64,000 nt of DNA from Gammaproteobacteria bacterium (GTDB lineage: Bacteria; Pseudomonadota; Gammaproteobacteria; Arenicellales; Poriferihabitantaceae). The notes beneath the pieces are model-generated. The model was not told the origin of the DNA and ran no database searches. It saw nothing but the letters and a program-made list of their open reading frames with translations. Made by a program: the position numbers and the translations under genes. Positions within the stretch are counted from its first letter, which is position 1. The number at the start of each line of letters is the position of its first letter. The stretch spans positions 7,691-71,690 of the forward strand of contig VYFG01000003.1 in the NCBI GenBank assembly GCA_009842505.1, in the 5' to 3' direction. This document shows, one piece after another, positions 35,339-53,451 of the stretch.

Positions 35339-35663
35339 CCTTGATGGAAGAGCACAGTTGATCGCGTGACCACCCCGGTCAATGCATAAAAGATATCCAA
35401 CACCATCTTTTACACCAATGGTTCAGCGCACAGCACAGGTATGTGATTGTTCTTATTGAACATATGGAAGGGAAGGCCAAGCATGCCCAATTGCACATGC
35501 GTCAGTATCTCGACAGAGTGTGCTGTACTTTTTTGTTCGCCCCCTACCGAAACACTTGAACTCAACTTGTGGCTCGGATCTCACGATGTCGTTATCCAAC
35601 TTCGTGGGTTCACTTCGGAATACATGGTAACTTTGCATAGATCACACACGGGTCATATTTCCG

Positions 35664-37256
35664 ATGAAAAAAAATACGCACCCCGGCAACATTCTTTTCA
35701 TCATGTGCGATCAGCTGCGCTTCGATTATCTGTCCTGCTATGGTCATCCAATCCTGCAGACACCGAATATCGACAAGCTCGCAAAGCGAGGGGTACGCTT
35801 CACGCACGCCTATTGTGCCGCCCCGATTTGCGCGCCTTCACGTGCCAGTTTTTACAGTGGCCGATATTCATCCAGTCATGGCGTGTTGGGAAACGACGAC
35901 AACGCCCGCCTGGACGAAAAGATGATTGCCGACTACCTGCAGCCACTGGGTTACCGCTCGGCCGTGGTGGGAAAAACACACGTCCATAAGGATTTGAAGG
36001 AAATATCCGCGCTCGGCCTCGATCCAGACTCACCCTGGTGCAGGGCTTCACAAACCGGCGGCTTCGAACCCTATGAATCCCATGAAGGCCTGTTTCCTGA
36101 TCCTGTACTGGCCATCAATCCCGGCCAGGGTTACGACACATACCTGAAGTCACTGGGCTATGACCCGGATAACCCCTGGGACAAAAATGCCAACAGCAGT
36201 GTCGACCCCGATGGCAATCTGCATTCGGGCTGGCTGCTGCGCAGTTCAAAATATCCCGCGGCGATCAACGAAGAGCATTCGGAAACCGCATTTACCACGC
36301 GGCGCGCAATGGATTTTATTCGAGGGTGTGGCAGCCAGCCTTGGTGCCTGCATCTAAGTTACATCAAACCACACTGGCCGGTCATCGCCCCGGCCCCCTA
36401 CCACGAAATGTACCAACAGCTCGAGATACCGAGTGCGGTTCGAAATGAAAGGGAGTATCAGAATCCCCACCCTGTCTACCAGGCATTCATGGAGCAGGAA
36501 TACAGCGTTTCCTATTCTCGCGACGAAGTCAGAGACACTGTCGTTCCGGCCTACATGGGCCTGATCAGGCAAATCGACGATCATCTCGGTCGGTTGTTCG
36601 ATTTCATGCGGGCACAAGGCCTGGATCAGAATACCCTGGTCGTATTCACCGCAGACCACGGCGATTATCTCGGTGATCATTGGCTCGGAGAAAAAGATCT
36701 GTTTCACGACGTCTCAGCCAAGGTGCCGCTGATTATTGCCGATCCGCGAGCGGATGCCGACACAACCCGGGGACAGACCTGCAGTAAACTGGTTGAAGCG
36801 GTCGATATTCTTCCCAGCTTCATCGAGTTTGCCGGTGGCTTACCCTGCCGGGAACGTCTTGAGGGTCAATCCCTGTTGCCCCTGATTCACGGCCAGGCAA
36901 ACGTGTTTCAACGTGAATATGCAGTCAGTGAAATCGATTACGCCGACCGTGGCCCACGTGCCCTGCTCAACCTTGAACCGTATCAGTGTCGCGCGACGAT
37001 GGTTAGTGATCATCACTGGAAATACATCCACCACCACACATTTGCGGCACAACTGTTTGACCTGGAGAACGATCCGGACGAACTGATAGACCTCGGGCAG
37101 GACACCCGATACGCCGGGATTTGTCAAGAAATGCAGGAATACCTGTTCGAATGGCGCGGAGATTTGAAACGCCGTTGCGGGTTGGACTACGGGTTCATGG
37201 CGGGACAAGGCCCTGAGCGTGACGAGGAGTGGGGAATCATAATCGGCCGATGGTAG
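35664..37256 (+). CDS. Alkaline-phosphatase-superfamily sulfatase, phosphonate-monoester-hydrolase (PMH)-like, cytoplasmic
   Basis: ILFIMCDQLRFDYL is followed by the C-x-P-x-R nucleophile motif (CAPSRASFYSGRY). PWCLHLSYIKPHWPVIAPAPYHEMY and LVVFTADHGDYLGDHWL are colinear with rhizobial PMH-type enzymes as I recall them. No signal peptide is present. Confidence 0.75.
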   Translation: MKKNTHPGNILFIMCDQLRFDYLSCYGHPILQTPNIDKLAKRGVRFTHAYCAAPICAPSRASFYSGRYSSSHGVLGNDDNARLDEKMIADYLQPLGYRSAVVGKTHVHKDLKEISALGLDPDSPWCRASQTGGFEPYESHEGLFPDPVLAINPGQGYDTYLKSLGYDPDNPWDKNANSSVDPDGNLHSGWLLRSSKYPAAINEEHSETAFTTRRAMDFIRGCGSQPWCLHLSYIKPHWPVIAPAPYHEMYQQLEIPSAVRNEREYQNPHPVYQAFMEQEYSVSYSRDEVRDTVVPAYMGLIRQIDDHLGRLFDFMRAQGLDQNTLVVFTADHGDYLGDHWLGEKDLFHDVSAKVPLIIADPRADADTTRGQTCSKLVEAVDILPSFIEFAGGLPCRERLEGQSLLPLIHGQANVFQREYAVSEIDYADRGPRALLNLEPYQCRATMVSDHHWKYIHHHTFAAQLFDLENDPDELIDLGQDTRYAGICQEMQEYLFEWRGDLKRRCGLDYGFMAGQGPERDEEWGIIIGRW

Positions 37257-37289
37257 CGCTCAGCCGCTCACTGCCGGCCGATCCGGAAA

Positions 37290-38792
37290 TCAATCCCGAT
37301 TCTCTCTTCGGTTTCCGGCGGTCTTGCCGGTCCTCCTGAAGTAGGTCCACAGGTGAATGCTGATAACCAGCACAATCGCTGTAAAGATTATTGCCGCGAT
37401 CGGTCTGTCGATAAAATCCAAGGGGCTTTTGACACGCGCCATCGACGATCGCAGTTTCACTTCCATGATTCCGCCCAGCACCATTCCGAGCACGATGGGG
37501 ACACTCGGCAAATCCAAACGTTTCAGTATCAACCCGAATACGCCGAACGCCGCGCCAATCGCGCAATCGGTCATCGAGTTCCGCAACGAATAAAGACCGA
37601 CAAAGGCTAACGTCAATATCATCACGCCCAGGAACCTGCTCGGAATGCGAATCACCCGGAGAATCTGGTTGGTCGAGAAGATGAGGAATATCAGGACAAA
37701 GATGTTTAGCAGAAATAGCCCGATGTAGAGTGCGACCACAAAAGGCATCTGGTTGGCAAAGAGTTGCGGCCCGGGGATCACGTTATGCACGTAAAAAACT
37801 GACAGCATCATCGCCGTCAGAGCCTCTCCGGGGATACCCAGCGCCAGCAGCGGGATCATCGCCGCACCAGGCACAGCATTGTTTGCCGACTCGGCGGCAA
37901 CCAACCCCTCCGGAGCTCCCTTACCGAAAAGTTCCGGTGTTTTCGAGGTCTTTTGTGCATAGGTGTAGGACATGAATTGCGAGGTGAATTCTCCGACACC
38001 CGGAATCATGCCCATGAGCACGCCGAAGGAAGACCCCACGGTTGCCACGCGTTTGTAGATCCAGAGTTCCTTCAGACCTTCGAACAACCCGCCTTCTACC
38101 CTCGTCGCTTCGGGATGGGTGTCCTTGTCAACCAGCAAGAGGAAAGCCTGGGAAAGCGCGAACAGCCCCAATACGACAACAATCAGGTCTATCCCCGAAG
38201 CGAGCCAGGTCTGATCGAATGTAAAGCGTCGTGTGTACTTGACCGGCTCCAGTCCCACCGTATTCAAGAAAATCCCGAAACATGCCAACATGCCGGCCAC
38301 GAATACCTTTCCACGATGGGCCAGCACTACCAGCACGACTCCAAGTAACGCGGCGAGAAAAATCTCACGGCTGCCGAAGTGCGGCGCAACCAAGGCCAGA
38401 ACCTGCGCCAGCAGTATCAAGCAGACGACCGAAAATATCCCCCCAAAGAAAGAAGCCGAGTAAGCCAGGGACAACGCCCGCTTCGGATTGCCATCACGAG
38501 CGATGGGATGGCCATCGTATGTGGTCAGGGCATTGACAGCGGTACCCGGTGTGTTGATCAGGATTGCGGGTATCGCGCCCCCGTACATCGATGACCCGTA
38601 AATTCCGAGCAGCAAGGTCAAACCGACAATGGGTTCCATCGCAAAGGTAGCCGGCAAGAGGATGGCGATGGCAACCGCCGCGCCCACACCCGGAACGGCA
38701 CCGATGATTACTCCGCCGACCGAGCCCACCAACAGCGCACCGAGCACTTCCCAGCGCAGAAGAATGGCAATGGCTGCAGCCAGGGTTTCCAT
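37290..38792 (-). CDS. tctA: Tripartite tricarboxylate transporter large permease
   Basis: 500-aa polytopic protein with a TctA-type N-terminus (GSVGGVIIGAVPGVGAAVAIAILLPATF). Confidence 0.85.
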   Translation of the reverse strand: METLAAAIAILLRWEVLGALLVGSVGGVIIGAVPGVGAAVAIAILLPATFAMEPIVGLTLLLGIYGSSMYGGAIPAILINTPGTAVNALTTYDGHPIARDGNPKRALSLAYSASFFGGIFSVVCLILLAQVLALVAPHFGSREIFLAALLGVVLVVLAHRGKVFVAGMLACFGIFLNTVGLEPVKYTRRFTFDQTWLASGIDLIVVVLGLFALSQAFLLLVDKDTHPEATRVEGGLFEGLKELWIYKRVATVGSSFGVLMGMIPGVGEFTSQFMSYTYAQKTSKTPELFGKGAPEGLVAAESANNAVPGAAMIPLLALGIPGEALTAMMLSVFYVHNVIPGPQLFANQMPFVVALYIGLFLLNIFVLIFLIFSTNQILRVIRIPSRFLGVMILTLAFVGLYSLRNSMTDCAIGAAFGVFGLILKRLDLPSVPIVLGMVLGGIMEVKLRSSMARVKSPLDFIDRPIAAIIFTAIVLVISIHLWTYFRRTGKTAGNRRENRD

Positions 38793-38801
38793 GCAATCGA
38801 C

Positions 38802-39341
38802 TCAGAGGTACAACAACATGAAATTACGGATGCCATCAGGCAGCAATTCGTAAACCTGTCCGGCCGGAATCTTTACCTGTAAGAACGCCTTGAAAATCAC
38901 CACAATGCCCACTCCCATTGCCGCAGCACCAAGATACATATCTTTTGTGCGGTACCCCACCCGGTAGGTCAAAGCCAAGGTGAACAACAGCGTAGCTCCC
39001 AGGTATCCGATCCTGGGAACGATCCAGACGTAGATCAGAAACCAGACCGAATACTCGAGGGAACGAATCCAGAAAATCACCTCGGGACCACGTCCAGGCG
39101 TTCGCGGTGAAGCCAGGGAGCCGATGCAATGCAGTACGGCGAAAAGCAACATACCGCTCAGGCTGATGGTCGGCCAGAAGGCGGGCTGAGCAAAAAACTT
39201 GGTTCGCTTGGCCCATATAGCCTGTTCGCCAAGTTGGCTGACCAGGAAAACAGACAAGAGTAAAAACGCCACGGCAAAGGCCAGATCGCCGGGATGGCGT
39301 TCGCGCTTAAAAAAACTCACGAACCCCGATTTCGCGGCCAT
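38802..39341 (-). CDS. tctB: Tripartite tricarboxylate transporter small membrane subunit
   Basis: 179 aa with four predicted transmembrane segments, positioned between tctC and tctA. Confidence 0.7.
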   Translation of the reverse strand: MAAKSGFVSFFKRERHPGDLAFAVAFLLLSVFLVSQLGEQAIWAKRTKFFAQPAFWPTISLSGMLLFAVLHCIGSLASPRTPGRGPEVIFWIRSLEYSVWFLIYVWIVPRIGYLGATLLFTLALTYRVGYRTKDMYLGAAAMGVGIVVIFKAFLQVKIPAGQVYELLPDGIRNFMLLYL

Positions 39342-39405
39342 TGACCTACCCCTCTACGTAAGCGAAAAGGCCTAACGCATGGCAACAATAAACTGAATTG
39401 CGGCT

Positions 39406-40338
39406 CTACTCGAGTATCTGGTTTATACGGCCAAAGGATACTATGTCGCGTTCGATCTGTTCGTGGGCCTGATCGACATCCTGCCAGTAGATCAAGGCGC
39501 CGGTTTCATTCGAAAGTTCCTTTGCCTGGTCTGACTGCATGACGCGCATAGCGACACTGCGGATTTTTTCCCGCGCATCCGCCGGGGTATCCTTATGGAC
39601 GAACAGTCCGTTCCACAGTGAGATATCGAGTTCGGGCGCAATTTCGGCAACTGTTGGGGCATCGGGTGTTTTCGAAATACGATCCCCGGTAATCGAGGCC
39701 AGAACCTTGACCTTGTCCAGGCATGGCAGCACCAACTGCAACGTGGTATTGATCACGTCGGCATCACCTGAAGCCAAGGTATTGCAATCGAGCGCATCGA
39801 AGGCTGCATCCGAGGCATATTCGAAATCCAGGTGCACCGCCAGCGCCAGAGTCACCTTGGTCGGAATCAGCGGAGTGCCGAAGTGGCCGAGCGTGACGTC
39901 ATTCTCTCTGGCGTATTCGGCAAGTCCCTGCATGTCGTCATAGGGCGCATCTCCATTTGCGACGATCACAAACGGGTAAGTCAGGAAGTTGCCTATGGGC
40001 TCGAATGGATTGGGACTCAGTTCGGGAATGCCGATATTCGGCCCAACTACCGGGATGGCGATAATGAACGAGCCGACAGTGTAGCCATCGGCCGGTGCGT
40101 TTGCTACTTCAACGGCTCCAGGGAACGGGCCCCCGCCCCCGCCAGGCTTGTTGACTACTGCCGCAGGTACGCCGTATTCGGCCTGAAATTCATCTGCAAT
40201 CATGCGGGTCAGCACGTCTTCCAGGTCACCAGGCGGCCAGGGCACGATAAAGGTGACCGGTTTTTCCGGATACTCGGCCTGTGCCGTAAAAACGACAAAT
40301 GACAAGCCCATGATCAGGGCCAAGGCTAACTTTTTCAT
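39406..40338 (-). CDS. tctC: Tripartite tricarboxylate transporter periplasmic substrate-binding protein (Bug family)
   Basis: A signal peptide is followed by YPEKPVTFIVPWPPGDLEDVLTRMIADEF...VVNKPGGGG, the TctC/Bug hallmark. Confidence 0.85.
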   Translation of the reverse strand: MKKLALALIMGLSFVVFTAQAEYPEKPVTFIVPWPPGDLEDVLTRMIADEFQAEYGVPAAVVNKPGGGGGPFPGAVEVANAPADGYTVGSFIIAIPVVGPNIGIPELSPNPFEPIGNFLTYPFVIVANGDAPYDDMQGLAEYARENDVTLGHFGTPLIPTKVTLALAVHLDFEYASDAAFDALDCNTLASGDADVINTTLQLVLPCLDKVKVLASITGDRISKTPDAPTVAEIAPELDISLWNGLFVHKDTPADAREKIRSVAMRVMQSDQAKELSNETGALIYWQDVDQAHEQIERDIVSFGRINQILE

Positions 40339-40406
40339 AACTCCTCCAGATTTTCAGATTGTAGTTAATCTATTACCAACACCCGCACACTGCCAGAAGC
40401 ACAATT

Positions 40407-41279
40407 TCAGTGCCAGCCGGTTTCGGGTTTATCAAACCAGACATGCACCTGCCCCGTGCCGGTCGCGTTTTCATAGTCACTGAACATCCGCCCTTTCGCA
40501 TTGCACTCATGCTCGCCCAGGGCGCCGATCATGATCAGGTAGTGTCCGAACATGCCTTCCGGCTTATGCGGACGGAACGCCTCCATCTCATCAATGACGC
40601 GCGCGTGATCGCCCTGCTGCCACCAATCGATACGTTCCTCGTCCGCAGCGCGTGCCTCCGGCGTACGGATATGAATCGGGTCGGACGCTTCGTGATCGGG
40701 GATTTCATCGAACGGCCAGAAGCGATGGCTCATGCCACCGCTGGCGATGATCACGACGCGCTGATCCGAGGCGGCAACCGCGTCGGCAATGCCGCGGCCG
40801 ACAGCGAGGAAATTGTGATCGCGTGCCGTCTGGCACAGTCCCATGGACAGCCAGGTCTCCCCGCGATTGAGATAGTGCGCGGTGTTGATGGTCGGGTAAT
40901 GGAGCGGCAAGTAGGGATCGTCACAGGGATAGCAGCGGGTACCCTTGAGATTGACCTTCTCCGCCAGCAGACGGGCGAATTCCGGGTTGCCTTTCAGATT
41001 GTAGGGTACCTGCACCATGCCGCGGGGCAGTTCCTCGGCGGTGAATTTCCCCTGCAGCCGTTCGTGTGAGGTGACGACGAACTCCCAAGTGGTAAACCAG
41101 TGTGAATCGAGGAGCAGTATGGTGTCCGGTTGCAGCTCGTCAAGCACTTCGCTGCGAATGCGCTCCAGCCCGGGCACCAGGCTGATCTCCTTCCCCTCAT
41201 TGAGCTCCAGTCTCAATTCGCGGGGAAACATGATGGTGGGGGCGTGTGACAGAAAACCAGCGCCGACTATTTCTCCCAT
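40407..41279 (-). CDS. hpaD: Class III (LigB-type) extradiol dioxygenase, homoprotocatechuate 2,3-dioxygenase-like
   Basis: 290 aa. The segments GFLSHAPTIM, LLLDSHWF, IIASGGMSHRF and the C-terminal ATGTGQVHVWF are colinear with E. coli HpaD/HpcB. The gene is clustered with hpaE/H/I. Confidence 0.7.
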   Translation of the reverse strand: MGEIVGAGFLSHAPTIMFPRELRLELNEGKEISLVPGLERIRSEVLDELQPDTILLLDSHWFTTWEFVVTSHERLQGKFTAEELPRGMVQVPYNLKGNPEFARLLAEKVNLKGTRCYPCDDPYLPLHYPTINTAHYLNRGETWLSMGLCQTARDHNFLAVGRGIADAVAASDQRVVIIASGGMSHRFWPFDEIPDHEASDPIHIRTPEARAADEERIDWWQQGDHARVIDEMEAFRPHKPEGMFGHYLIMIGALGEHECNAKGRMFSDYENATGTGQVHVWFDKPETGWH

Positions 41280-41335
41280 CCCGATTCTGCCAGTAATTTA
41301 CAACGATAAAGGCTAGCTTAGCATTCGGTGTTTTC

Positions 41336-41349
41336 GTTTGCAACCGAAC
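41336..41349. promoter_or_regulatory. Operator-like inverted repeat, copy d (GTTTG-CAAC-CGAAC)
   Basis: This site lies 57 nt upstream of the hpaD-like ATG. With its flanks (TCGTTTGCAACCGAACGATAT, 41334-41354) it matches copy b at 19 of 21 positions. Confidence 0.55.
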
Positions 41350-41801
41350 GATATCTCCTGAAGCTGGTGAACCGGGGCAATGTCTCCATGTGCGCAAGTT
41401 CTGTTAGAAACAGCCCCGGTGAATCCATGGACGAATGATCCACTACCAAGGTCCTGTGTCCTGCCTAGTCATGATCATCGCCGGGCATTGGACAATATTA
41501 CCTGTTGGGCGTGACCCGCCCGCATTGCGTGCCAGTTCCGAAAAGCGGCGACAACAGTGCGCGAGCAACAATTCATCCGAATGACGCGAGTGCAAAAGGG
41601 TACGGGATCCGGGCGGGTTGATTTGTTCCCGGTCTCCGGATGCAACTCATCCGCACCGTCCTGGTATCAAAGATGCTTCTGCCGCAGGTCTTCCCCCCGA
41701 AACCGAGCAGGGAAAATTCCCGAACGGCGATTGGATAGTGTTTCTTCGGGCCGCTTTCCGTGTTGAAAATACGTCCTGCAGCATCCAGCAGGAAATCGCA
41801 C

Positions 41802-41831
41802 TTGATTTCGTTAGCATGCTAACGATATTAT
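41802..41831 (+). promoter_or_regulatory. Putative sigma70 promoter of the P450 operon, with operator copy a filling the spacer
   Basis: TTGATT (41802-41807), an 18-nt spacer, then TATTAT (41826-41831). The spacer is exactly the perfect 18-bp palindrome TCGTTAGCATGCTAACGA (41808-41825; core GTTAG-CATG-CTAAC at 41810-41823). This is a classic repressor-occluded promoter layout. Confidence 0.55.
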
Positions 41832-43328: not shown

Positions 43329-43649
43329 ATGGCCAAGATCACCTGGAAAATGCAAGACGGAACCGTGATCTCCGCAGAGGTTAAAGATGGCCTGAATCTG
43401 ATGGAGGCGGCCACCGCCAACAACGTTTCGCATATCATGGGCGAATGCGGCGGATGCCTGTCCTGCGCCACCTGCCACGTTTTCGTGGCCCACGAATGGC
43501 TGGCCAAGACCGGTGAAGTCGACGATATTGAGGATGCCATGCTGGAAATGACCGAAGTCGAGCGTGAAGAAAACAGCCGCCTGAGTTGCCAGATAATCGC
43601 ATCGCCCGAGCTCGATGGTCTGCTGCTGCACGTACCCGAACCGGAATAG
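43329..43649 (+). CDS. [2Fe-2S] ferredoxin (putidaredoxin/adrenodoxin type)
   Basis: 106 aa with the cluster ligand pattern GECGGCLSCATCHV ... LSCQI. Confidence 0.85.
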   Translation: MAKITWKMQDGTVISAEVKDGLNLMEAATANNVSHIMGECGGCLSCATCHVFVAHEWLAKTGEVDDIEDAMLEMTEVEREENSRLSCQIIASPELDGLLLHVPEPE

Positions 43650-45722: not shown

Positions 45723-47198
45723 ATGAGTGCAGAAGTCCAAGACAGGCGCGTAGACATAGAAGGTATCTCGATTTCCACCGATCACTTCATTGGCGGCAAG
45801 CGAGTCTCGTCACCGAATACATTCGAAGTCCGCTCTCCGCTCGACTGGGATTGGAAACTCGCCGATGTGGCCCGCGGCGACGCGGCCACCGCCGCTGCGG
45901 CAATCGAAGCTGCGCAGCAGGGATTCGACGTCTGGTCGCGGATGTCGCCTGCCGAACGCGGGCAGATCATGAATAACCTGGCTGACCGCATCGAGGCCAA
46001 CATCGAAAAAATCGCAACCATCGAATGCCTCGACATGGCGATGCTGCTGGAAAGCCTGAAGTTGCGCGTGATTCCGCGCGCAGCAGTGAATTTTCGCGCC
46101 TATGCAGACCTTGCTGCCGAATATCAGGAGCGTGTGTGGGATTCGAAAGGCACGCACAACACCGTGATTCGAATGCCCGCAGGCCCGGCGGTCATCATAA
46201 CTCCCTGGAACGCGCCGTTCATGCTGTCGACCTGGAAATGCGCACCGGCGCTTGCTGCCGGCAATTCGGTCATCCTCAAACCGGCCGAGTGGTCGCCGCT
46301 GTCGTTAAGCCTGCTCGCCGACTGGATCAATGGTGCCGGATTTCCACCGGGTGCATTCAATATTGTGCAGGGCATTGGTAGTGAACTGGGGCCGTGTCTG
46401 ACCGGCGACTCGAGGGTAAAGCGCGTGTCGTTTACCGGTTCACCGGCAACCGCACGCCACATCGGCCATGCGGCCGCAGAGAACATAGTGCCATTCACGG
46501 CGGAACTGGGGGGAAAGGGCGCGCTGGTGGTATTTGCCGACGCCGATATTGATGCCGCTGCGCAAAAGGCTTCCAACCAGTTCCACGATTCCGGTCAGGT
46601 TTGCCTTGCGGGCACGCGTATCCTCGTCGAGGAATCGATTCGCGATGAATTCTTGCACAAGTTGACGATGTACACCGAAAAGCAGATACAGGGCGACAGC
46701 CGGGACCCGGCAACCACGCTGTCCCCGGCGATACACCCGAATCATCTCAAAAATGTGGAGGCCTACGTCGACAATGCGCGCAACCGCGGCGATCGGATCG
46801 TGTTTGGCGGTCAACGGTGGAAGAAAGACGGGTTGTGGTATGAACCCACGTTGATTGAACCAAAATCGAACGATTCCGAAGTGGTGCAAAACGAGATCTT
46901 CGGCCCGGTACTGACCATTCAAACCTTTACCGACGAGGCCGAGGCAATCAGCATGGCCAACTCAACGGCCTACGGTCTTTCAGGAATAATCTATACCAGC
47001 GATGCGGAAAGAGCCGAACGCGTCGGTCGTGCAGTACGCGCCGGCACGGTCTGGGTCAATACTTTCCTGATTCGCGACCTGACCGCTCCTTTTGGCGGCA
47101 TCGGCATCAGCGGAATCGGCCGTGAAGGCGGTCACTATGCGCTGGAATTCCATTGCGATCTGAAAACACTGCAGATTCTGGAGGATAGCGTCCACTAG
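45723..47198 (+). CDS. hpaE: 5-carboxymethyl-2-hydroxymuconate semialdehyde dehydrogenase-like NAD+ aldehyde dehydrogenase
   Basis: ATG at 45723 is preceded by GGAGA. ALDH motifs are present (ITPWNAPF, ELGGKG, catalytic Cys in GQVCLAGTR), and the C-terminal RDLTAPFGGIGISGIGREGGHYALEF is colinear with HpaE. Confidence 0.75.
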   Translation: MSAEVQDRRVDIEGISISTDHFIGGKRVSSPNTFEVRSPLDWDWKLADVARGDAATAAAAIEAAQQGFDVWSRMSPAERGQIMNNLADRIEANIEKIATIECLDMAMLLESLKLRVIPRAAVNFRAYADLAAEYQERVWDSKGTHNTVIRMPAGPAVIITPWNAPFMLSTWKCAPALAAGNSVILKPAEWSPLSLSLLADWINGAGFPPGAFNIVQGIGSELGPCLTGDSRVKRVSFTGSPATARHIGHAAAENIVPFTAELGGKGALVVFADADIDAAAQKASNQFHDSGQVCLAGTRILVEESIRDEFLHKLTMYTEKQIQGDSRDPATTLSPAIHPNHLKNVEAYVDNARNRGDRIVFGGQRWKKDGLWYEPTLIEPKSNDSEVVQNEIFGPVLTIQTFTDEAEAISMANSTAYGLSGIIYTSDAERAERVGRAVRAGTVWVNTFLIRDLTAPFGGIGISGIGREGGHYALEFHCDLKTLQILEDSVH

Positions 47199-47281: not shown

Positions 47282-48166
47282 TTATTCTTCGTCGAGTATG
47301 CTTTTGTAATGCGCGGCGCCCTGCCCGCCGGCGGCCCGTTTTCCGCGAAACTCCCAGTCGCCGCCTTTCGCCGTCGAAATCACCTCTTCAGATTCGGTCG
47401 GTTGCGCACCGACATCATCACGAATCGGGGTCGGTCCCTGCACGATTTTGTTGGCCAGTTTACCGAGGCCCTCAACTTCCACCTCGACGATATCACCGGG
47501 ATAGACCGTACGACTCATCGCGGGCGTACCGGACAGCAACAGGTCTCCCGGCTCCAGGGTGATATTGCGCGCGATATCGGCAACCAGATAGTGCATATCC
47601 CATTCCATCTCGTCAGTATTTCCATCCTGCATCACCTTGCCATTGACGATCGTCTTGATCCGCTTACCGCGAAAATCCCAGTCGGTGACCAATCCGGGAC
47701 CTACGGGACATAGGGTGTCCGATCCCTTCACCCTCAACATCGAACCCGCATCGGTGTCACGGAAATCGTGCAGACCGTAATCATTGGCAATCGCATAACC
47801 GGCGATATAACCCCCTGCGTCAGCCTGGCTGATATTACGGCAATGTCTGCCGATGACAATCGCGATTTCTCCTTCATAGTTCAACCACTTGCAACGCTCG
47901 GGCCTGACGACATCGGCTTTGTGGCCACACAATGCGGTCAACGGTTTCTGAAAATATGTTGGCGCATCCGGGAGCACGGTCATGAACTCATCCACGCGGC
48001 TTCTGTAATTCAGATGGACACAGATAATCTTTCGCGGTTCGGTCGGCGGCAAGTGGACGGCTTCTTCAATCGGCATCTCACGACCGTCACTGGCAATCAG
48101 CATATCTCCATTTACTGCAACCGTGGTTGCGTAGCCATCGAGCAGTATTCTTCTGAATTCAGCCAT
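47282..48166 (-). CDS. Fumarylacetoacetate-hydrolase-family enzyme (single-domain HpaG/HpcE-like decarboxylase/isomerase)
   Basis: The FAH fold segments are present (KIICVHLNYRSR, WLNYEGEIAIVIG, LLSGTPAMS). The start at MAEFRR (48166) is preferred; ATG at 48202 is the alternative. Confidence 0.75.
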   Translation of the reverse strand: MAEFRRILLDGYATTVAVNGDMLIASDGREMPIEEAVHLPPTEPRKIICVHLNYRSRVDEFMTVLPDAPTYFQKPLTALCGHKADVVRPERCKWLNYEGEIAIVIGRHCRNISQADAGGYIAGYAIANDYGLHDFRDTDAGSMLRVKGSDTLCPVGPGLVTDWDFRGKRIKTIVNGKVMQDGNTDEMEWDMHYLVADIARNITLEPGDLLLSGTPAMSRTVYPGDIVEVEVEGLGKLANKIVQGPTPIRDDVGAQPTESEEVISTAKGGDWEFRGKRAAGGQGAAHYKSILDEE

Positions 48167-48180
48167 GATTGAAATATATT

Positions 48181-48194
48181 GTTTGGTTCCGAAC
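48181..48194. promoter_or_regulatory. Operator-like inverted repeat, copy e (GTTTG-GTTC-CGAAC)
   Basis: It lies between the divergent FAH-family gene and the MarR gene, 15 nt upstream of the preferred FAH start. Confidence 0.45.
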
Positions 48195-48376
48195 GTATTC
48201 ATGCTATCTTATATTCATGGGCGCTTCAAGCATGGAAACAGTGTACGAAACCATATCCGGCAGAAATCATGGACGAGACATGGCGGCGCGATAACGCTTG
48301 ACGAGCAGGCGGGTATGGATATGGGCCTCGATAAAGTACTATATCGTCGAGCACATTCACGGGAGATTTTGAAACC

Positions 48377-48871
48377 ATGATCAGAGATTCCACGCCTTCT
48401 CCGGCTGAAATTGACGCTAACAGTCAGTTAAGAAAGATGAATATCGATCATGACTCCATGGCAACGATGTCGAATATATTTCGTGTCGCAACCAAGTTCC
48501 GTTCGCATGTGGAACGGGAGGTATTGAACCAGCATAATCTGTCGTTCTCGACATTTACCATTCTCTGGATCACCTGGATCAGGGGGCCGAAGGAGTTCAA
48601 GGAGTTGGCCATGGATTGCGGCGTCAGCAAGGGAACCATGACCGGCTTGATCAAGGGACTGATCAAGATGGATCTGGTGTCGCGTGGCAAACACAAAACT
48701 GATGGCCGTCGGCTGATGATCAGTATCACGCCTGCAGGCCGCCGACTGATCAAGAAAATATTTCCACAGGTCAATCGACTGGAAACGCTGTTCAACAAGC
48801 AGTTAAAGGTAAAAGAGAAAAGGGAACTCGCAAATTTGCTGCGCATTATCCTTAATACTTCCCTGCCCTAG
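48377..48871 (+). CDS. MarR-family transcriptional regulator
   Basis: The winged-helix core (LSFSTFTILWI...PKEFKELAMDCGVSKGTMTGLIKGLIKMDLVSRGKHKTDGRRLMISITPAG) is typical of MarR. The start may be one of the internal Met codons. Confidence 0.8.
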   Translation: MIRDSTPSPAEIDANSQLRKMNIDHDSMATMSNIFRVATKFRSHVEREVLNQHNLSFSTFTILWITWIRGPKEFKELAMDCGVSKGTMTGLIKGLIKMDLVSRGKHKTDGRRLMISITPAGRRLIKKIFPQVNRLETLFNKQLKVKEKRELANLLRIILNTSLP

Positions 48872-48924
48872 ATGAACAGCAAGCCCATTGACCATGATTC
48901 GTTGATGATCACCCAAGAATCAAG

Positions 48925-49710
48925 ATGATTGCGGCCTACCCGGTAATCGGCATTCCAGTCGATGTAAAGTTTTACGAAGACGCGCCCTATCACATCGTCG
49001 GTGAGAAATACATCAACGCGATTGCCCACGGCGTCGAAAGTTACCCGTTGATTATTCCGGCAATGGGTGACGGTCACGATCTCAAAGCCTTCGACGGCAA
49101 GTTCTCATGGGCCGATATTGTCTCTTCGCTTGACGGTATTTTCCTGCCCGGGAGTCACTCCAATATCCACCCCCGTCGCTATGGAAAACCTGAACGTCAG
49201 CCAGTATTGCCAATCGACGAACAGCGCGACGAAATGACGCTGAACTTGATTCACGTTTGCATTGAAAACCGGGTTCCGCTGCTTGCCGTGTGCCGTGGTT
49301 ACCAGGAACTGAATGTCGCTTTCGGAGGCAGCATTCATGTCGAGATCCACGAAATGGGTACCTTTTCCGATCATCGGGAAAATTATGAACTTCAACGTGA
49401 CCAGCAGTACCAGCCCGCGCACCCAGTTGAATTTACTCCCGGCGGGCTGCTGCACAGCATCTACGGCGATACTGTCGCGATGGTGAATTCCCTGCATGGG
49501 CAGGGAATCGATTGCCTGGGTGACGGATTGCAGGTCGAGGCCGTTGCCCCCGACGGCTTGATCGAGGCGATCCGTGTAACCGACAGCCCCGGTTTCACAC
49601 TGGGAGTTCAATGGCATCCTGAATGGCGATTCTGGGAAGACACGCTGTCGCAGAAAATTTTTCATACGTTTCGCGATGCGGTACTCGAGCGTTTTAAAGC
49701 ACGTCAATGA
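48925..49710 (+). CDS. PuuD-like gamma-glutamyl-amide hydrolase (class I glutamine amidotransferase-like, peptidase C26)
   Basis: The nucleophile elbow LLAVCRGYQELNVAFGG and GVQWHPEW are present. The protein is 261 aa, similar in length to PuuD. Confidence 0.8.
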   Translation: MIAAYPVIGIPVDVKFYEDAPYHIVGEKYINAIAHGVESYPLIIPAMGDGHDLKAFDGKFSWADIVSSLDGIFLPGSHSNIHPRRYGKPERQPVLPIDEQRDEMTLNLIHVCIENRVPLLAVCRGYQELNVAFGGSIHVEIHEMGTFSDHRENYELQRDQQYQPAHPVEFTPGGLLHSIYGDTVAMVNSLHGQGIDCLGDGLQVEAVAPDGLIEAIRVTDSPGFTLGVQWHPEWRFWEDTLSQKIFHTFRDAVLERFKARQ

Positions 49711-49798
49711 CCTTTCGAACACACCACCCCGGAACGATTCATGTTCAATACTACTTGCCGTCTGGATTGATTTTGTGACGGCAGTAACGGAGAACCCG

Positions 49799-50599
49799 AT
49801 GCAAGATTCCGATATCAAGAGTGTTGCCCGGCGTTTGCATGAGGCAGAAGCAAACGTGGAGCGCATCAAGCAGACTTCTCTGGAGTATCCCAACATAACC
49901 ATTGCGGATGCCTATGCCATTCAAAGCGAATGGTGCAAGATCAAGATCTCCGCGGGCCAGGTAGTAAAGGGTCACAAAATCGGGTTGACGTCACGCGCGA
50001 TGCAAATGCAGGCCGAAATAGACGAGCCGGATTTCGGTACGCTGTTCGACAAGATGTTTTTCGACGATGGTTCCGAAATTGAAGCCAAGAAATTCCTGAC
50101 ACCGATGGTAGAGGTCGAACTGGCATTCATTCTCGGCAGCCGCCTCGAGGGCGACGCGGTTACTATTTTCGATGTAATCAATGCAACTGACTTCGTGACG
50201 CCTGCTCTCGAAATTATCGATTTTCGCAACAACGGCGTCGATCCGGGGCAGCAACAGACGCGTACCGTGATGGATACGATTGCCGACAATGCCGCCAACG
50301 CCGGAATCGTACTTGGCGGCCGTGCGATGCGGCCGAAGGATCTGGATTTACGTTGGATTCCTGCACTGTTGTACAAAAACGGCATCATTGAAGAAACCGG
50401 GGTCGCCGCCGGGGTGCTCAACAACCCGGCTAACGGCATCGTCTGGCTGGCAAAAAAATTGGCGCCATTCTGCATTGCGCTGGAGGCCGGCCAGGTGGTT
50501 CTTGCCGGCTCCTTTACGCGACCGGTGCCCGTTGCCCCCGGCGACACCATTCACGGGGACTTCTGCAATCTCGGATCAATCACCTGCAGGTTTCGCTAG
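49799..50599 (+). CDS. hpaH: 2-oxo-hept-4-ene-1,7-dioate hydratase
   Basis: 266 aa and colinear with E. coli HpaH (KGHKIGLTSRAMQ, VEVELAFIL, DTIADNAANAGIVLGG, GVAAGVLNNPANGIVWLAKKLAP, ...GSITCRF). Confidence 0.88.
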   Translation: MQDSDIKSVARRLHEAEANVERIKQTSLEYPNITIADAYAIQSEWCKIKISAGQVVKGHKIGLTSRAMQMQAEIDEPDFGTLFDKMFFDDGSEIEAKKFLTPMVEVELAFILGSRLEGDAVTIFDVINATDFVTPALEIIDFRNNGVDPGQQQTRTVMDTIADNAANAGIVLGGRAMRPKDLDLRWIPALLYKNGIIEETGVAAGVLNNPANGIVWLAKKLAPFCIALEAGQVVLAGSFTRPVPVAPGDTIHGDFCNLGSITCRFR

Positions 50600-50601
50600 A
50601 C

Positions 50602-51393
50602 ATGAAAACACTCAGCAATCCCTTTAAAGAAGCCCTTGCCGATAACAGGGTTCAGTACGGCTACTGGATGGCGTTGGCCAGTCCCTACACTGCCGAGATT
50701 TGTGCAACCGCCGGGTTCGACTGGCTGCTGATCGATGGCGAACATGGACCAAACGACATTCATTCGATACTGGCACAGCTGCAGGCAGTCGCTGCCTATC
50801 CGTCACAACCCGTGGTGCGGCCGGTAGAGGGAAGCGCAGCCAGTATCAAGCAATTGCTCGACATCGGGGCGCACAACCTCCTCATTCCGATGGTCGAAAC
50901 CGCCGAGCAGGCCAGACAGCTGGTCAACGCGACACGTTATCCGCCTGCCGGCTCCCGCGGCGTCGGGGCGGCAATCGCCCGATCATCGCGTTGGCTTGCG
51001 ATCGACAACTACGACCACAGAATCGAAAACCAAATTTGCCTGTTGCTGCAGATAGAATCCCGGGCCGGGCTGGAAAATCTCGATCAGATTCTTGAGGTTG
51101 AGGGCTACGATGGCATATTCATCGGCCCTTCGGACTTGGCCGCATCCCTGGATCAGATCGGTAACACCCGGCACCCCGACGTGCAATCCGCAATAGGCGC
51201 CGCAATCGCGAAGATCAGGCGGGCAAATAAAGCGGTCGGCATACTCAGCACCGAAGATGACATGATCCAGTCCTATCTGGAGATGGGGGCCGTCTTTATT
51301 GCCATCGGCGTCGACACCATCGCCCTGGCCGGTTCCACACGCGCACTGGCGAGCCAGTACCAGCATATGGATTCAGTGCGTGCACGAACCTGA
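50602..51393 (+). CDS. hpaI: 4-hydroxy-2-oxoheptanedioate (HpaI/HpcH) aldolase
   Basis: 263 aa and colinear with E. coli HpaI (GFDWLLIDGEHGPN, YPSQPVVRP, TRYPPAGSRGVG, DGIFIGPSDLAAS). Confidence 0.88.
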   Translation: MKTLSNPFKEALADNRVQYGYWMALASPYTAEICATAGFDWLLIDGEHGPNDIHSILAQLQAVAAYPSQPVVRPVEGSAASIKQLLDIGAHNLLIPMVETAEQARQLVNATRYPPAGSRGVGAAIARSSRWLAIDNYDHRIENQICLLLQIESRAGLENLDQILEVEGYDGIFIGPSDLAASLDQIGNTRHPDVQSAIGAAIAKIRRANKAVGILSTEDDMIQSYLEMGAVFIAIGVDTIALAGSTRALASQYQHMDSVRART

Positions 51394-51439
51394 TTTCAGG
51401 AATCATGTTAATTCCAGCCGGGGTGTGTTATGTTTTATC

Positions 51440-51453
51440 GTTAGCAACCTAAC
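51440..51453. promoter_or_regulatory. Operator-like inverted repeat, copy b (GTTAG-CAAC-CTAAC)
   Basis: The extended palindrome ATCGTTAG-CAAC-CTAACGAT (51437-51456) lies 125 nt upstream of the GS-like ATG. That is the same distance as copy c from hpaE. Confidence 0.55.
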
Positions 51454-51580
51454 GATATATCAATGGCACATGTGGGGTCATCGGTAAAGCGATTAGCTGT
51501 CAGCTTGGTAAGGCGGAATCAACAACAAACACTACCGGTTCCCCCAAAGCGCCATCAGTGTTGAAGAGAGAGGCTCAATC

Positions 51581-52870
51581 ATGTTAGACGACTTCAAACG
51601 CATCCGTGTGCTGTCCGCCGACCACCTGAATCTGGCGCGCGGCAAGTATGTTCCCGCCGGGTTGGCGAAGAAAGGTGAGATGAACGCCTGTATCGGCATC
51701 TATGCCGTCGATTACAAACGGGATCTCATCAATGCCCCTGGGGCCGGGATGGAAATGGGTTTGCCCGACCTGAAGGCAATCTACGATATCAAACAAGTCC
51801 GTCCCAGCTGGGAAAAGGATACCGGTGTCGTCGTGGCCGATCTATACAGCAATGACAAGCCTCTGCCTCTCTGTGGACGGAGCTTGCTGAAGATGACCCT
51901 TGCCGACTGGAAAGCGTTGGGCTGCACCGTCAACATTGGGATTGAACTGGAGGCTTACGTTTTTCAACGCGGCCATGATGGAAAATGGGAGCCTTACGAC
52001 ACGCCCGGAGCCTACGTGTACGGCACAGGTCCGAGTGTGGACCCCGAAGGATTGATGGATATCGTCTGGGAAGCCGCCGAGAAGCTGAATTTTCCGATAG
52101 AGGCGATAAATTCCGAATTCGACTGGCCGCAGTTTGAGTTCACTCTCGAATATGCCGATGCGCTCACCGCGCTGGACAATCTTTTCCTTTTTCGCCTAAT
52201 GGCCAAGGAACTTTTGATCAAGCAGGGCTACCTCTTCAGTTTCATGCCCAAGCCCTTGTCGGATCGAGGCGGCAGTGGGATGCACCTGAACATCAGCCTG
52301 TCAGACGAACACGGCAATAACCTGCTCAACGATCCGAGTAAAGATGACGGCCTCTCCGACATGGTCAAGCCAATGATTGCCGGCCTGATCAAGCATCATG
52401 TGTCGCTGGCTGCCCTGATGTGTCCCACGATCAATTCATACAAGCGACTTCGACCGTCAAACATTTGCGGACATGCGGGCAACTGGGGTTACGACCATCG
52501 CTGCGCTACGACGCGTATACCGCTCGACCGCGGCAAGGGAACCCGCATCGAGCATCGGTTGGCCGATTGTGCAGCGAATCCCTACATCGCGGCAGCAGCA
52601 GCGCTACAGGCCTGTCGGCTCGGCTTTACGAAACAGTACCCGGTTCCGGATCCCGAGCCGAGCGAAGGATTCACCGAACCCAAAACAGACAATGTCATAC
52701 CGGACACGATGGGCGAGGGGCTACGCGCTCTCAAGGCTGATACCGATCTGACCGAGGCAATCGGGCAACCCATGGTCGATCATTTTCTGGCGATCAAGGG
52801 CAAGGAGTGGAACGAGTATCTCGACCACACCACCGACTGGGAAATTGATACCTATCTGGAATTCATCTAG
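51581..52870 (+). CDS. Glutamine-synthetase-family ligase (gamma-glutamyl-amide synthetase candidate, PuuA/IpuC-like)
   Basis: 429 aa with a GS catalytic domain (IGIELEAYVF, MPKPLSDRGGSGMHLNISL, NSYKRL, RIEHRLADCAANPY) and a shortened N-terminal domain. GAGAGAGG precedes the ATG. Confidence 0.8.
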   Translation: MLDDFKRIRVLSADHLNLARGKYVPAGLAKKGEMNACIGIYAVDYKRDLINAPGAGMEMGLPDLKAIYDIKQVRPSWEKDTGVVVADLYSNDKPLPLCGRSLLKMTLADWKALGCTVNIGIELEAYVFQRGHDGKWEPYDTPGAYVYGTGPSVDPEGLMDIVWEAAEKLNFPIEAINSEFDWPQFEFTLEYADALTALDNLFLFRLMAKELLIKQGYLFSFMPKPLSDRGGSGMHLNISLSDEHGNNLLNDPSKDDGLSDMVKPMIAGLIKHHVSLAALMCPTINSYKRLRPSNICGHAGNWGYDHRCATTRIPLDRGKGTRIEHRLADCAANPYIAAAAALQACRLGFTKQYPVPDPEPSEGFTEPKTDNVIPDTMGEGLRALKADTDLTEAIGQPMVDHFLAIKGKEWNEYLDHTTDWEIDTYLEFI

Positions 52871-53451
52871 CTCCATACCCCACGAAGTTGGCATCAACCT
52901 GAGGCTTTTCATTGCGACCCTGAAGCAATCGCCGCGTAAGCGGGGTCGGGATTGATGTCGATTTAACGTTGTATCCTGTCATCCAGGTCCTTGAATCACG
53001 TATGGAAGCTATTTCAAAAACCATTTCCTATCAATGAAATAGGGGGCAGGATTCTCGCGTATGTCCCTACATTGATGCCAGGCGATACCTCTCCACGAAT
53101 GTGCCAGGTCCACGGCGGGGTAGGCATGGTTGTTACTGTCCATCCCTCACACAGAATCCGGATGCAGCCGCCAGGACATGCAACTCCTACCACGGATGAT
53201 TGACGGCAAATCGCAGATCCCGTCTTTCCTGAAAATTTCCATAATCCGATAAGCCCGGAGACTATGCGGAAAATTTGCCGCTATCCATCAAGGCAGTCCA
53301 TGACAATGCTGTTCCCACGACAAGAATTTATCTACAAATCCTGCGATTCACGAAAAATTCACCGGGTACTGCAGCAATCATTATCGAACCGAATCCCGGA
53401 TTGTCACTCTTGTCCCTGTATAATCCACCCCATTGCACATCCCCCTGCCCC

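Follow-up and report, generated by a model that had tools for sequence, protein, structure and literature searches.

A low-GC catabolic island between nth and arsS in an uncultured gammaproteobacterium and its predicted aromatic-amine pathway

The homoprotocatechuate pathway of Escherichia coli W and C comprises HpaD, HpaE, HpaF, HpaG, HpaH, HpaI, and HpaR, with HpaBC upstream. In the aniline dioxygenase systems (AtdA/TdnQ-T), glutamine-synthetase-like (GS-like) and glutamine-amidotransferase-like proteins act on the aromatic amine before ring oxidation. The Ipu pathway for isopropylamine, known from Pseudomonas sp. KIE171 and Arthrobacter aurescens TC1, begins with a GS-like ATP-dependent ligase that forms a gamma-glutamyl amide, after which a three-component cytochrome P450 oxidizes the product and an amidotransferase-type hydrolase frees the glutamate (PMC6776027, citing de Azevedo Wasch et al., 2002). 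Here, a 64,000-nt stretch of contig VYFG01000003.1 (assembly GCA_009842505.1; hereafter the window) was analyzed, in which genes resembling parts of these systems lie together in a block of low guanine-plus-cytosine (GC) content between nth and an arsS-like gene. The host is an uncultured gammaproteobacterium, and the sequences come from assemblies with sponge-study sample labels (ENGE20, ROBB21, PANK22, and NGUY21, read as sponge-microbiome studies from the names alone). The best explanation as a whole, which is highly probable, is that horizontal transfer brought in the segment as a catabolic genomic island, which has since been immobilized.

Composition and occupancy of the nth-arsS site

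All coordinates are those of the window, and L-codes denote the loci and contigs that were compared with it. The GC content was 0.644 at positions 1-35338, 0.548 at positions 35339-53385, and 0.648 at positions 53386-64000, with the shift completed within ~100 bp at each end of the island. The GC content at third codon positions (GC3) was 0.651 +/- 0.037 among the 16 island genes versus 0.767 +/- 0.080 among 38 flanking open reading frames (ORFs) (Mann-Whitney p = 1.4e-5), the latter being crude calls of which the well-defined genes reach 0.77-0.88. The tetranucleotide z-scores of the island correlated with those of the flanks at r = 0.59, compared with 0.76-0.83 for five island-sized flank pieces against the rest and 0.81 between the left and right flanks. 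The atypical composition was common to all 16 genes and to the intergenic DNA. By GC, GC3, and tetranucleotides alike, the block differed from the core genome, as is typical of genomic islands.

The original prediction, made from the sequence alone, had placed a lower-GC block right after the nth stop, and the sliding composition check bore this out: far from being indistinguishable from the core genome in codon usage, the block was clearly separated by GC3 and tetranucleotides. Its spot values were less exact. The first intergenic stretch (35339-35663) had 46.8% GC rather than ~42%, and the flanking genes had 62-68% rather than ~68-72%. The island genes were indeed lower than the flanks, in a range of 48-60% rather than ~53-62%, and 16 genes were called where 17 had been counted.

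The limits of the island were defined by the following features.

34607..35338, + strand: nth (endonuclease III), left native flank (NCBIfam TIGR01083, 277.7 bits, cut-off 211.7)
35339..35574, no strand: left linker, non-coding, 236 bp, 47% GC; absent from the empty site and not common to the module in L098
52877..53385, no strand: right linker, non-coding, 509 bp, 49% GC; present in L092, absent from L098, L095, L093, and the empty sites
53452..54417, + strand: arsS-like radical SAM gene, right native flank (TIGR04167, 434 bits, cut-off 300)

The DNA absent from empty-site relatives extends from 35339 to ~53385 (~18.05 kb). On the left, the alignment of nth with the empty-site relative L088 continues through the TGA stop, which lies at a homologous position. 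On the right, homology with the relatives restarts at ~53385, upstream of the arsS -10 box TGTATAAT at 53417-53424, which is kept in all relatives in the promoter alignment. The stretch 52871-53451 had been described as a non-coding right edge; it holds no credible ORF, while its last ~65 bp before arsS proved to be native and lie outside the island. Nth itself has a K/R/G-rich C-terminal extension, ~35-40 residues past the endonuclease III domain (window 35230-35338). The same tail is present in L088 and L001, and it is therefore native and not a product of the insertion. A separate observation concerns the right linker, where positions 52871-53413 were 96.5% identical between the window and L092, a level like that of coding genes and above other island intergenic regions (91.7-94.7%). 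This conservation could hint at a function, in a single comparison that was not significant.

Relatives were reached through a search for ArsS homologues and then through the contigs of those homologues; the collection of species-representative genomes contained no close relative (best Nth identity 75%). In L088, where ArsS is 86% identical, SPL-rnfB-nth is followed by a 166 bp spacer and then by arsS-PhyH ... PGI-DAO-DUF2160-ABC, which is the gene order of the window without the island. The DNA of L088 aligns to window 33883-35259 and then to 53414-55353 at 82-84% identity, and its flanking DNA is overall ~80-85% identical to the window. A 217 bp spacer separates nth and arsS in L091 (ArsS 80%; a 3.70 Mb chromosome), and the distance is ~110-130 bp in L001 (ArsS 73%) and L039 (ArsS 65%). 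L001 belongs to an uncultured gammaproteobacterium and L039 is a Candidatus Poriferihabitaceae chromosome of the order Arenicellales from a sponge genome project, and they are the two loci of the species-representative collection that have the rnfB-nth-arsS order. In L092 (ArsS 97%), the island was found at the same site. The segment is thus present in some lineages while the same locus is empty in relatives, which is a further mark of a genomic island. The alignment of the nth-arsS interval supported the earlier view that the block was acquired rather than ancestral, as the two genes are adjacent in L088, L091, L001, and L039 instead of being separated by the same 18 kb in all relatives.

Within the island genes covered in L092 (fdx to the GS-like gene), identity to the window was 93-97% per gene, and that of the flank genes was 92-97%. 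The mismatches were mostly at codon position 3 (GS-like gene, 32 of 37; dehydrogenase gene, 34 of 44). Hence the island was present in the common ancestor of the window strain and L092, and has been under purifying selection. By these comparisons, its entry would date to after the split of the L088 lineage (ArsS 86%) and before that of L092 (ArsS 97%).

Other irregular spots were observed in the window. Positions 55285-56450, between PhyH (54466-55284) and PGI (56451-58124), are variable: the window carries an unannotated ORF of 206 aa, L092 an AbiEii-type pair, L088 a CoA ligase, ATP-grasp, MaoC, and 2OG oxygenase, and L091 nothing. A second, small low-GC patch (~0.53-0.54) at 4392-6173 holds a Fic/DOC-family gene (4776-5414, minus strand, Pfam 5.4e-17) and unannotated small ORFs, and may be another acquired islet or a toxin-antitoxin module. 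Additionally, a low-GC ORF (0.52) at 9912-10262 overlaps the tRNA-Thr gene (10002-10077, minus strand) and is probably not a gene.

Island genes and their recurrence in other genomes

Gene identities were judged by NCBIfam equivalog cut-offs, supplemented by Pfam and PDB profile searches. The 16 genes are listed below.

35664..37256, + strand: Cys-type sulfatase, CAPSR motif at residue 56 (Pfam Sulfatase, 2.9e-47)
37290..38792, - strand: TctA, large permease of a tripartite tricarboxylate transporter (TTT) (PF01970)
38802..39341, - strand: TctB, small permease (PF07331)
39406..40338, - strand: TctC, periplasmic solute-binding protein (PF03401)
40407..41279, - strand: LigB-superfamily extradiol dioxygenase (Pfam LigB, 1.2e-22; TIGR02298 HpaD_Fe, 125.5 bits, cut-off 316)
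42036..43304, + strand: cytochrome P450, heme-binding motif FGQGGPHVCLG (PDB 8VXI, E 1.9e-90)
43329..43649, + strand: 2Fe-2S ferredoxin, fdx (PF00111; TIGR02007, 1.4e-10)
43653..44873, + strand: FAD-dependent ferredoxin-NAD(+) reductase, fdr (NF042949, 1.4e-91, under cut-off; Pfam Pyr_redox_2 and Reductase_C)
44937..45506, + strand: GNAT protein, 189 aa, with a predicted insect-type arylalkylamine/dopamine N-acetyltransferase fold (profile and AlphaFold/Foldseek)
45723..47198, + strand: NAD-dependent aldehyde dehydrogenase (ALDH), nearest HpaE (TIGR02299, 469.8 bits, cut-off 638; also like StyD and PuuC)
47282..48202, - strand: fumarylacetoacetate-hydrolase (FAH)-family protein, like the C-terminal (decarboxylase/isomerase) domain of HpaG (TIGR02303, 195.7 bits, cut-off 276; Pfam FAA_hydrolase, 5e-56)
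48377..48871, + strand: MarR-family regulator, HpaR-like (TIGR02337, 2.6e-15, under cut-off; Pfam MarR)
48925..49710, + strand: class I glutamine-amidotransferase-like gamma-glutamyl hydrolase, PuuD-like, peptidase C26 (NF008471, 191.3 bits, cut-off 266; PF07722)
49799..50599, + strand: HpaH, 2-oxo-hept-4-ene-1,7-dioate hydratase (TIGR02312, 410.4 bits, cut-off 351.5)
50602..51393, + strand: HpaI-type class II aldolase (TIGR02311, 360.4 bits, cut-off 368.8, 8 bits short)
51581..52870, + strand: glutamine-synthetase-family ligase, predicted gamma-glutamyl-amine synthetase (TIGR03105, 250.7 bits, and NF045547, 196.9 bits, both under cut-offs)

From their orientation, the genes form five predicted transcription units: the sulfatase gene (+), dioxygenase-tctC-tctB-tctA (-), P450-fdx-fdr-GNAT-ALDH (+), the FAH-family gene (-), and marR-puuD-like-hpaH-hpaI followed by the GS-like gene (+). 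The closest solved structures to the sulfatase were PDB 4UPI (E 1.4e-167) and 4UPL (E 5.9e-155), both deposited as 'sulfatase family protein'; we take these to be Ruegeria pomeroyi arylsulfatases, a designation that the search output does not give. The nearest characterized enzyme to the dioxygenase was a 3,4-dihydroxyphenylacetate 2,3-dioxygenase (PDB 8IQ8, E 8.9e-23). The GS-like protein resembled type III glutamine synthetases, gamma-glutamylmethylamide synthetases, and gamma-glutamylputrescine synthetase, in each case well under the cut-offs. While these identities come from searches, the substrate and the order of steps discussed below are predictions from gene content.

The GNAT protein required a family profile. 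Its sequence alone gave only a sub-threshold GNAT match, while 19 of 21 homologues carry Pfam GNAT. Against the PDB, the family profile matched mosquito arylalkylamine N-acetyltransferase 2 (E 4e-10) and Drosophila dopamine N-acetyltransferase (E ~1e-9 to 1e-8), with E values of 4.3e-10 for 4FD5 and 1.7e-9 for 5GIF and a range of 4e-10 to 3e-7. The AlphaFold model (pLDDT 89) had as its best Foldseek matches the Ebony C-domain, Tribolium arylalkylamine N-acetyltransferase (AANAT), and Drosophila Dat, with query-normalized TM-scores of 0.77-0.83, and the top fold matches were all arylalkylamine or polyamine N-acyltransferases. Profile similarity and the modeled fold thus both point to an AANAT-type protein. 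The family is small, with 13 cluster representatives at E <= 1e-30 and 380 at E <= 1e-10 among 1.84 billion.

The same module was found in other genomes and corresponds to window 35574-52876 (~17.3 kb). The genome L098 (circular, 3.56 Mb), found via the GNAT as a rare island protein, matches this interval in four blocks of 84-89% nucleotide identity. Its flanks are unlike those of the window, with an unannotated ORF on the left (GC3 0.73) and a penicillin-amidase gene on the right (GC3 0.80), both high in GC, and the module is therefore a low-GC outlier in L098 too. A small ORF and an IS630-like helix-turn-helix (HTH) fragment stand in place of fdx-fdr (L098 8821-9932), so that the P450 there lacks its redox partners at the module, and a 663 bp insertion lies between the sulfatase gene and tctA (L098 2410-3072). 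In L095, a 17 kb JGI contig, the order hpaG(part)-marR-puuD-hpaH-hpaI-GS is retained at ~76% identity, followed by unrelated genes. There, GC/GC3 was 0.547/0.61 in the neighbors against 0.543/0.64 in the module, which is thus compositionally at home. L093 retains only hpaI and a disrupted GS-like gene (~90% identity), which adjoin HTH_Tnp_1 and Transposase_mut fragments, a Fic gene, and a TraG/TrwB-type gene of a type IV secretion system (T4SS). In the same genome, a pair of HTH-cupin and cupin genes is duplicated (1881-3276 and 15731-17123) around a ~12 kb region with transposase fragments, the island fragment, an OYE reductase, EamA, and an arginase-family gene.

The right end of homology in L098, L095, and L093 lies within a few bases of the GS-like stop codon, and the left start in L098 lies ~90 bp upstream of the sulfatase start. 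The coincidence of these ends defines a transferable unit of ~17.3 kb, and the two linkers, which are specific to the window lineage, would most simply be read as donor-context DNA brought along. For the five compared genes (marR to GS-like), GC was 0.54-0.55 and GC3 was 0.62-0.66 in all four hosts. Among PLSDB plasmids, the module was not found, with megablast matches of only 44-52 nt; by tblastn, the GS-like protein had homologues of at most 51% identity on megaplasmids, including that of Novosphingobium sp. EMRT-2.

More distant versions, with GS-like proteins 50-71% identical, formed a recurrent cluster family whose core is sulfatase-tctABC(-LigB) opposite P450-GS-ALDH, with FAH and MarR genes. 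The core was found in L094, L096, and L097, which are long-read metagenome-assembled genomes or contigs of 43-55% GC. Most of it is also present on two JGI marine contigs, L129 and L140, and a third, L130, has a part of it with no GS-like or ALDH match. A cultured representative is the Novosphingobium sp. EMRT-2 megaplasmid (L099; NZ_CP039697.1, 195387-220655), which encodes a LigB-like protein, P450-GS-ALDH ... ADC-FAH-ALDH-Fdx, and a MarR-annotated gene. Its LigB-like protein, 63% identical to that of the island, is annotated as 'catechol 1,2-dioxygenase', which looks like a misnomer.

Neighboring genes in this family provided hints of the substrate. L094 also encodes an aromatic-amino-acid transaminase (537 bits, cut-off 377), two group II pyridoxal-phosphate (PLP) decarboxylases, a DOPA-dioxygenase-family gene, and a VOC-type HpaD-like dioxygenase, and L096 encodes a PLP decarboxylase and an agmatinase-like gene. 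Together with the arylsulfatase and the AANAT-like GNAT, these suggest tyrosine- or DOPA-derived arylalkylamines, possibly as O-sulfates. The pathway was not described in the literature searched, and the substrate is accordingly a prediction. A separate pattern was observed in L104, L112, L114, and L122 (JGI), where a sulfatase homologue (58-61%) lies ~4 kb from a ferredoxin (81-87%) and a reductase (67-74%), both far closer to those of the island than the rest of these loci. The redox pair fdx-fdr may have a separate history.

Proposed explanation and its rivals

Under the proposed explanation, the ~17.3 kb module with non-coding ends of 236 bp and ~510 bp would have been inserted into an nth-arsS spacer of ~170-220 bp. 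The insertion would have occurred in an ancestor common to the window strain and a sister lineage ~95% identical in DNA, after the relative with 86% ArsS identity had split off. The module would have kept its own ~55% GC, which matches the 54%-GC background of the 76%-identical copy in L095. Entry may have been by larger mobile DNA, either conjugative or rich in insertion sequences (IS) and with group II introns as passengers, which integrated in a non-site-specific manner and whose mobility genes were lost or absent. That the island was acquired by horizontal transfer is regarded as nearly certain.

In the predicted pathway, TctABC would import a sulfated aromatic compound and the arylsulfatase would remove the sulfate. 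The GS-like ligase would then cap the nitrogen of an arylalkylamine as a gamma-glutamyl amide, with N-acylation by the AANAT-like GNAT as a possible alternative, and the capped amine would be oxidized by the P450-ferredoxin-reductase system and the aldehyde dehydrogenase. A homoprotocatechuate-type catechol would be opened by the LigB/HpaD-like dioxygenase and converted by the HpaE-, HpaG-, HpaH-, and HpaI-like enzymes to pyruvate and a C4 fragment, while the PuuD-like hydrolase would recycle the glutamate. Two variants were considered. In variant (a), the P450 would hydroxylate the ring of a gamma-glutamyl-tyramine-type intermediate, and the N-protected catechol would be cleaved to pyruvate and gamma-glutamyl-4-aminobutanal, which the dehydrogenase and the PuuD-like hydrolase would turn into 4-aminobutyrate (GABA) and glutamate; the carbon bookkeeping is our own, from the known Hpa pathway. 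In variant (b), the P450 would hydroxylate the carbon beside the amide nitrogen to yield glutamine and an arylacetaldehyde by oxidative N-dealkylation, and the dehydrogenase would oxidize the latter to homoprotocatechuate, which would enter the Hpa-type steps. Variant (a) explains the PuuD-like gene of the island, while variant (b) explains the adjacency of the P450, GS, and ALDH genes where the stretches examined show no dedicated hydrolase (L094, L096, L097, and L099).

The strength of these proposals varies. An arylalkylamine/homoprotocatechuate theme is favored by a modest degree, and any particular reaction order is tentative at best. It is also possible, if doubtful, that the cluster family represents a bacterial route, so far undescribed, for sulfated compounds of the catecholamine or tyramine type that derive from the host, in which an animal-type AANAT-like GNAT was recruited and the cassette was exchanged among unrelated sponge symbionts.

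Several observations weigh against the explanation as a whole or in part. Most of the enzymes score under their equivalog cut-offs, and HpaH alone passes. The P450 groups with the aliphatic omega-hydroxylases CYP125/124/153 and not with known aromatic hydroxylases. The 16 genes include no HpaF isomerase, HpaBC hydroxylase, or amine oxidase, and HpaF and HpaBC were also not found in the intergenic small ORFs. A single aldehyde dehydrogenase would have to serve for maybe two aldehyde oxidations, and TTT transporters usually carry carboxylates. The P450 type, the missing HpaF, the single dehydrogenase, and the transporter class count against both variants alike. A literature search returned no description of the gene combination, of bacterial gamma-glutamylation of tyramine or dopamine, or of a bacterial AANAT in sponges. 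As for the donor, only GC and GC3 point to a source background of ~54% GC: the tetranucleotide correlation of the island with the L095 background was 0.59, the same as with the host, and its tetranucleotides were no closer to the L093 background than to the host. Signs of mobility are scarce. Neither the 16 genes nor the three non-coding stretches, translated in all six frames, yielded an integrase, transposase, or relaxase domain, the sole tRNA gene in the window is the tRNA-Thr at 10002-10077, 25 kb from the island, and the longest direct repeat common to both borders is 9 nt, compared with 8-13 nt in shuffles.

The borders were searched for further features. The translations of the three non-coding stretches contained no protein relics, the repeat families of the window included no border pair, no tmRNA or other RNA gene was present at the borders, and 52871-53451 had no Rfam match. 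Of the features expected of a genomic island, a neighboring tRNA or tmRNA gene, flanking attachment (att) repeats, and mobility genes were therefore missing. No integrase with a relaxase, T4SS, or oriT and no attL/attR pair, as in integrative conjugative or mobilizable elements (ICE, IME), was identified, with a TraG-type gene only beside the L093 fragment; nor was an IS pair or a pair of terminal inverted repeats, as in composite transposons. An exact inverted match of 13 nt (35596-35608 and 52879-52891) was considered as a terminal repeat and rejected as chance. Its length equals the longest match in 200 shuffles (a null from direct matches only), one of its arms sits 22 bp within the left homology end and the other 3 bp beyond the right one, and the match is not kept in L098.

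The only mobility trace in the island is the following, as judged by alignment.

53144..53222, - strand: group II intron relic, 3' end (domain V region), decayed, ~80 nt (alignment with the L098 intron remnant)

By its match to Rfam RF02005 (132.6 bits, E 2.5e-39), the insertion of 663 bp in L098 is a minus-strand group II intron in degenerate form; it also has a domain-V-like match (E 0.023) and contains an ORF fragment that looks like a maturase C-terminus. The window segment aligned to it with a local score of 59, compared with 19.9 +/- 2.1 (maximum 28) in 500 shuffles. As the segment itself matches no Rfam model and is homologous to the L098 intron, it is a decayed relic of an intron 3' end. 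Such introns do not transport a segment of 18 kb, and they mark DNA from surroundings rich in mobile elements. The statements that the edges lack an integrase, IS element, tRNA, or direct repeat and that mobility genes are not visible were confirmed by the searches for domains, tRNA genes, and border repeats, and can now be extended by the relic at the right edge and by copies of the module near or with mobile-element genes.

The favored route of entry is delivery on larger mobile DNA with non-site-specific integration, or an element with its machinery erased. The latter, on which a rival account of the route alone is based, has a real though minor chance of being right: the island would be a degraded ICE, IME, or composite transposon that had its own machinery and later lost its integrase or IS and its att sites. 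The intron relic, the IS630-like fragment and intron in the L098 copy, and the transposases and T4SS coupling protein beside the L093 copy are all compatible with such an origin, and the unshared low-GC linkers at both ends could be its leftovers. However, the linkers contain no recognizable protein remnant, only ~750 bp of non-module DNA remains, terminal repeats are missing (the inverted match of 13 nt has no counterpart in L098), and the site is neither a tRNA gene nor another typical att site.

Regarding function, the island promoters contain a repeated operator-like motif. The 18 bp palindrome TCGTTAGCATGCTAACGA occurs in three copies in the window versus 0.11 expected, all in promoter regions of the island.

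41334..41351, no strand: operator-like palindrome copy 1, 3 mismatches, 55 bp upstream of the dioxygenase-tctCBA operon
41808..41825, no strand: perfect 18 bp palindrome TCGTTAGCATGCTAACGA, overlapping promoter-like hexamers upstream of the P450 operon
51438..51455, no strand: operator-like palindrome copy 3, 1 mismatch, 126 bp upstream of the GS-like gene

Variants were present in intergenic regions of the L098, L095, L094, and L096 clusters, and none was found in L097, in L093, or in the cluster-less loci L088, L091, L001, and L039. As binder of the palindrome, the MarR protein of the island is the natural candidate, and the island would then constitute one MarR-controlled regulon. The earlier suggestion of one functional theme with its own regulator gained support, as the genes co-occur in other genomes and the palindrome stands at three promoters. 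On the strength of the GNAT profile and fold, this theme can be narrowed to a predicted arylalkylamine substrate.

A functional rival would see in the island a plain 4-hydroxyphenylacetate/homoprotocatechuate (hpa) cluster beside unrelated puu-like, P450, and sulfatase genes with no common substrate. While HpaH passes its cut-off, HpaI, HpaE, HpaG, HpaD, and HpaR are the best family matches, and the PuuD-like and GS-like genes resemble enzymes of the putrescine pathway, this reading is improbable. The GS-like, P450, and ALDH genes are adjacent and co-conserved with the dioxygenase, FAH, and MarR genes from sponge metagenomes to the Novosphingobium megaplasmid, and the dioxygenase-transporter operon, the P450 operon, and the GS-like gene all have one and the same palindrome upstream. 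Moreover, neither a PuuB oxidase nor an HpaBC hydroxylase is present, and the GNAT has a predicted arylalkylamine-acyltransferase fold.

It is very unlikely that the block is ancestral at the nth-arsS site and was deleted independently in the relatives, with its composition arising from gene-specific constraints. In favor of this rival, the island was found in every contig with the exact Nth or GS-like protein, and the similar divergence of island and flanks between the window and L092 indicates vertical inheritance for some time. Nevertheless, the short nth-arsS spacer in four relatives at graded distances would call for several precise deletions, the atypical composition extends throughout all 16 genes and the intergenic DNA, and in three further contexts, one of them another high-GC host, the module stays at ~55% GC.

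A chimera of two organisms' DNA created by metagenome assembly has a negligible chance, even though the source is a short-read metagenome scaffold and two contigs of a 99.6% identical strain both start inside the island at 51346, as the left junction (nth-sulfatase) recurs in a separate Logan assembly of run SRR9841441 (L087) and the right junction (GS-arsS) in L082-L085 at 99.6-100% identity and in the divergent L092 (an NGUY21 scaffold) at ~96%. The source is represented by scaffold_94 (83 kb) of the ENA assembly ERZ23491977, a sponge-metagenome scaffold with 100% identity to the window, and L082-L085 are a second ENGE20 scaffold, the NCBI metagenome-assembled genome contig JAPPIN010000091.1, a ROBB21 scaffold, and a Logan contig. 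The recurrence of the junctions in separate assemblies excludes a chimeric assembly. The two contigs that begin exactly at 51346, in the 3' end of hpaI, are L083 and L084 from different assemblies, and their common start may reflect strain-level structural variation inside the island.

Comparison with known systems

As a genomic island, the segment is an ordinary kind of object. Its cargo is a coherent, regulated, and apparently uncharacterized predicted aromatic-amine pathway exchanged among sponge-associated bacteria. The case is unusually well documented for an uncultured symbiont, as the site was found both empty and, in a sister lineage, occupied, and the cassette recurs in other genomes. 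Sulfatases and TTT transporters, which are abundant in sponge symbionts, are here connected with a specific, regulated, predicted pathway for aromatic amines, which symbionts of 43-65% GC share by horizontal transfer. If the substrate prediction is true, it would offer a testable mechanism for symbiont use of host-derived sulfated phenolic amines.

Like anchored islands and genomic islets, the segment exceeds 10 kb, has atypical GC, GC3, and oligonucleotides, occurs in one lineage and is missing from the same site in relatives, and carries an accessory metabolic trait with a regulator. In contrast to these, it has no tRNA, direct repeats, integrase, or IS, lies in a short spacer between conserved housekeeping genes, and retains only an intron relic of ~80 nt.

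The hpa/hpc clusters resemble the island in the LigB-type extradiol dioxygenase, the HpaE-like and FAH-family HpaG-like proteins, HpaH, HpaI, and the MarR-type HpaR-like regulator, and HpaH was found together with an HpaI marginally under its cut-off. However, HpaF, HpaBC, and HpaX/HpaA are missing, HpaG is single-domain and not bifunctional, and the genes are interleaved with those of the P450, GS-like protein, GNAT, hydrolase, sulfatase, and TTT. The Puu pathway for putrescine in E. coli (PuuA, PuuB, PuuC, and PuuD) has in common with the island the gamma-glutamylation of an amine, an aldehyde dehydrogenase, and a gamma-glutamyl hydrolase of peptidase C26, but the island has no PuuB oxidase, and a P450 system would take the oxidative role. 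None of the Puu equivalogs was reached by the island proteins (PuuA model 196.9 versus 650, PuuC 337.6 versus 850, and PuuD 191.3 versus 266).

Compared with the aniline systems, the island has a P450 in the place of the Rieske components, no Rieske protein being found in it, and a lower pathway of the homoprotocatechuate rather than the catechol type. The insect AANAT/Dat proteins and the amine-selecting C-domain of Ebony are the best matches to the predicted fold of the GNAT, whereas its identity to them is only 12-18% and it belongs to a small, bacterial family.

The closest precedent for the trio of GS-like protein, P450, and hydrolase is the Ipu pathway, by gene content and published description. 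All five genes of an Ipu-type set, encoding the GS-like protein, P450, ferredoxin, reductase, and amidotransferase-type hydrolase, are present in the island. Unlike in Ipu, the trio comes with genes for aromatic ring cleavage, for an arylsulfatase, and for an AANAT-like GNAT, and the substrate is predicted to be aromatic. If this prediction is true, a P450-based variant would be added to the few pathways of amine gamma-glutamylation, namely Puu, Ipu, and the aniline systems.

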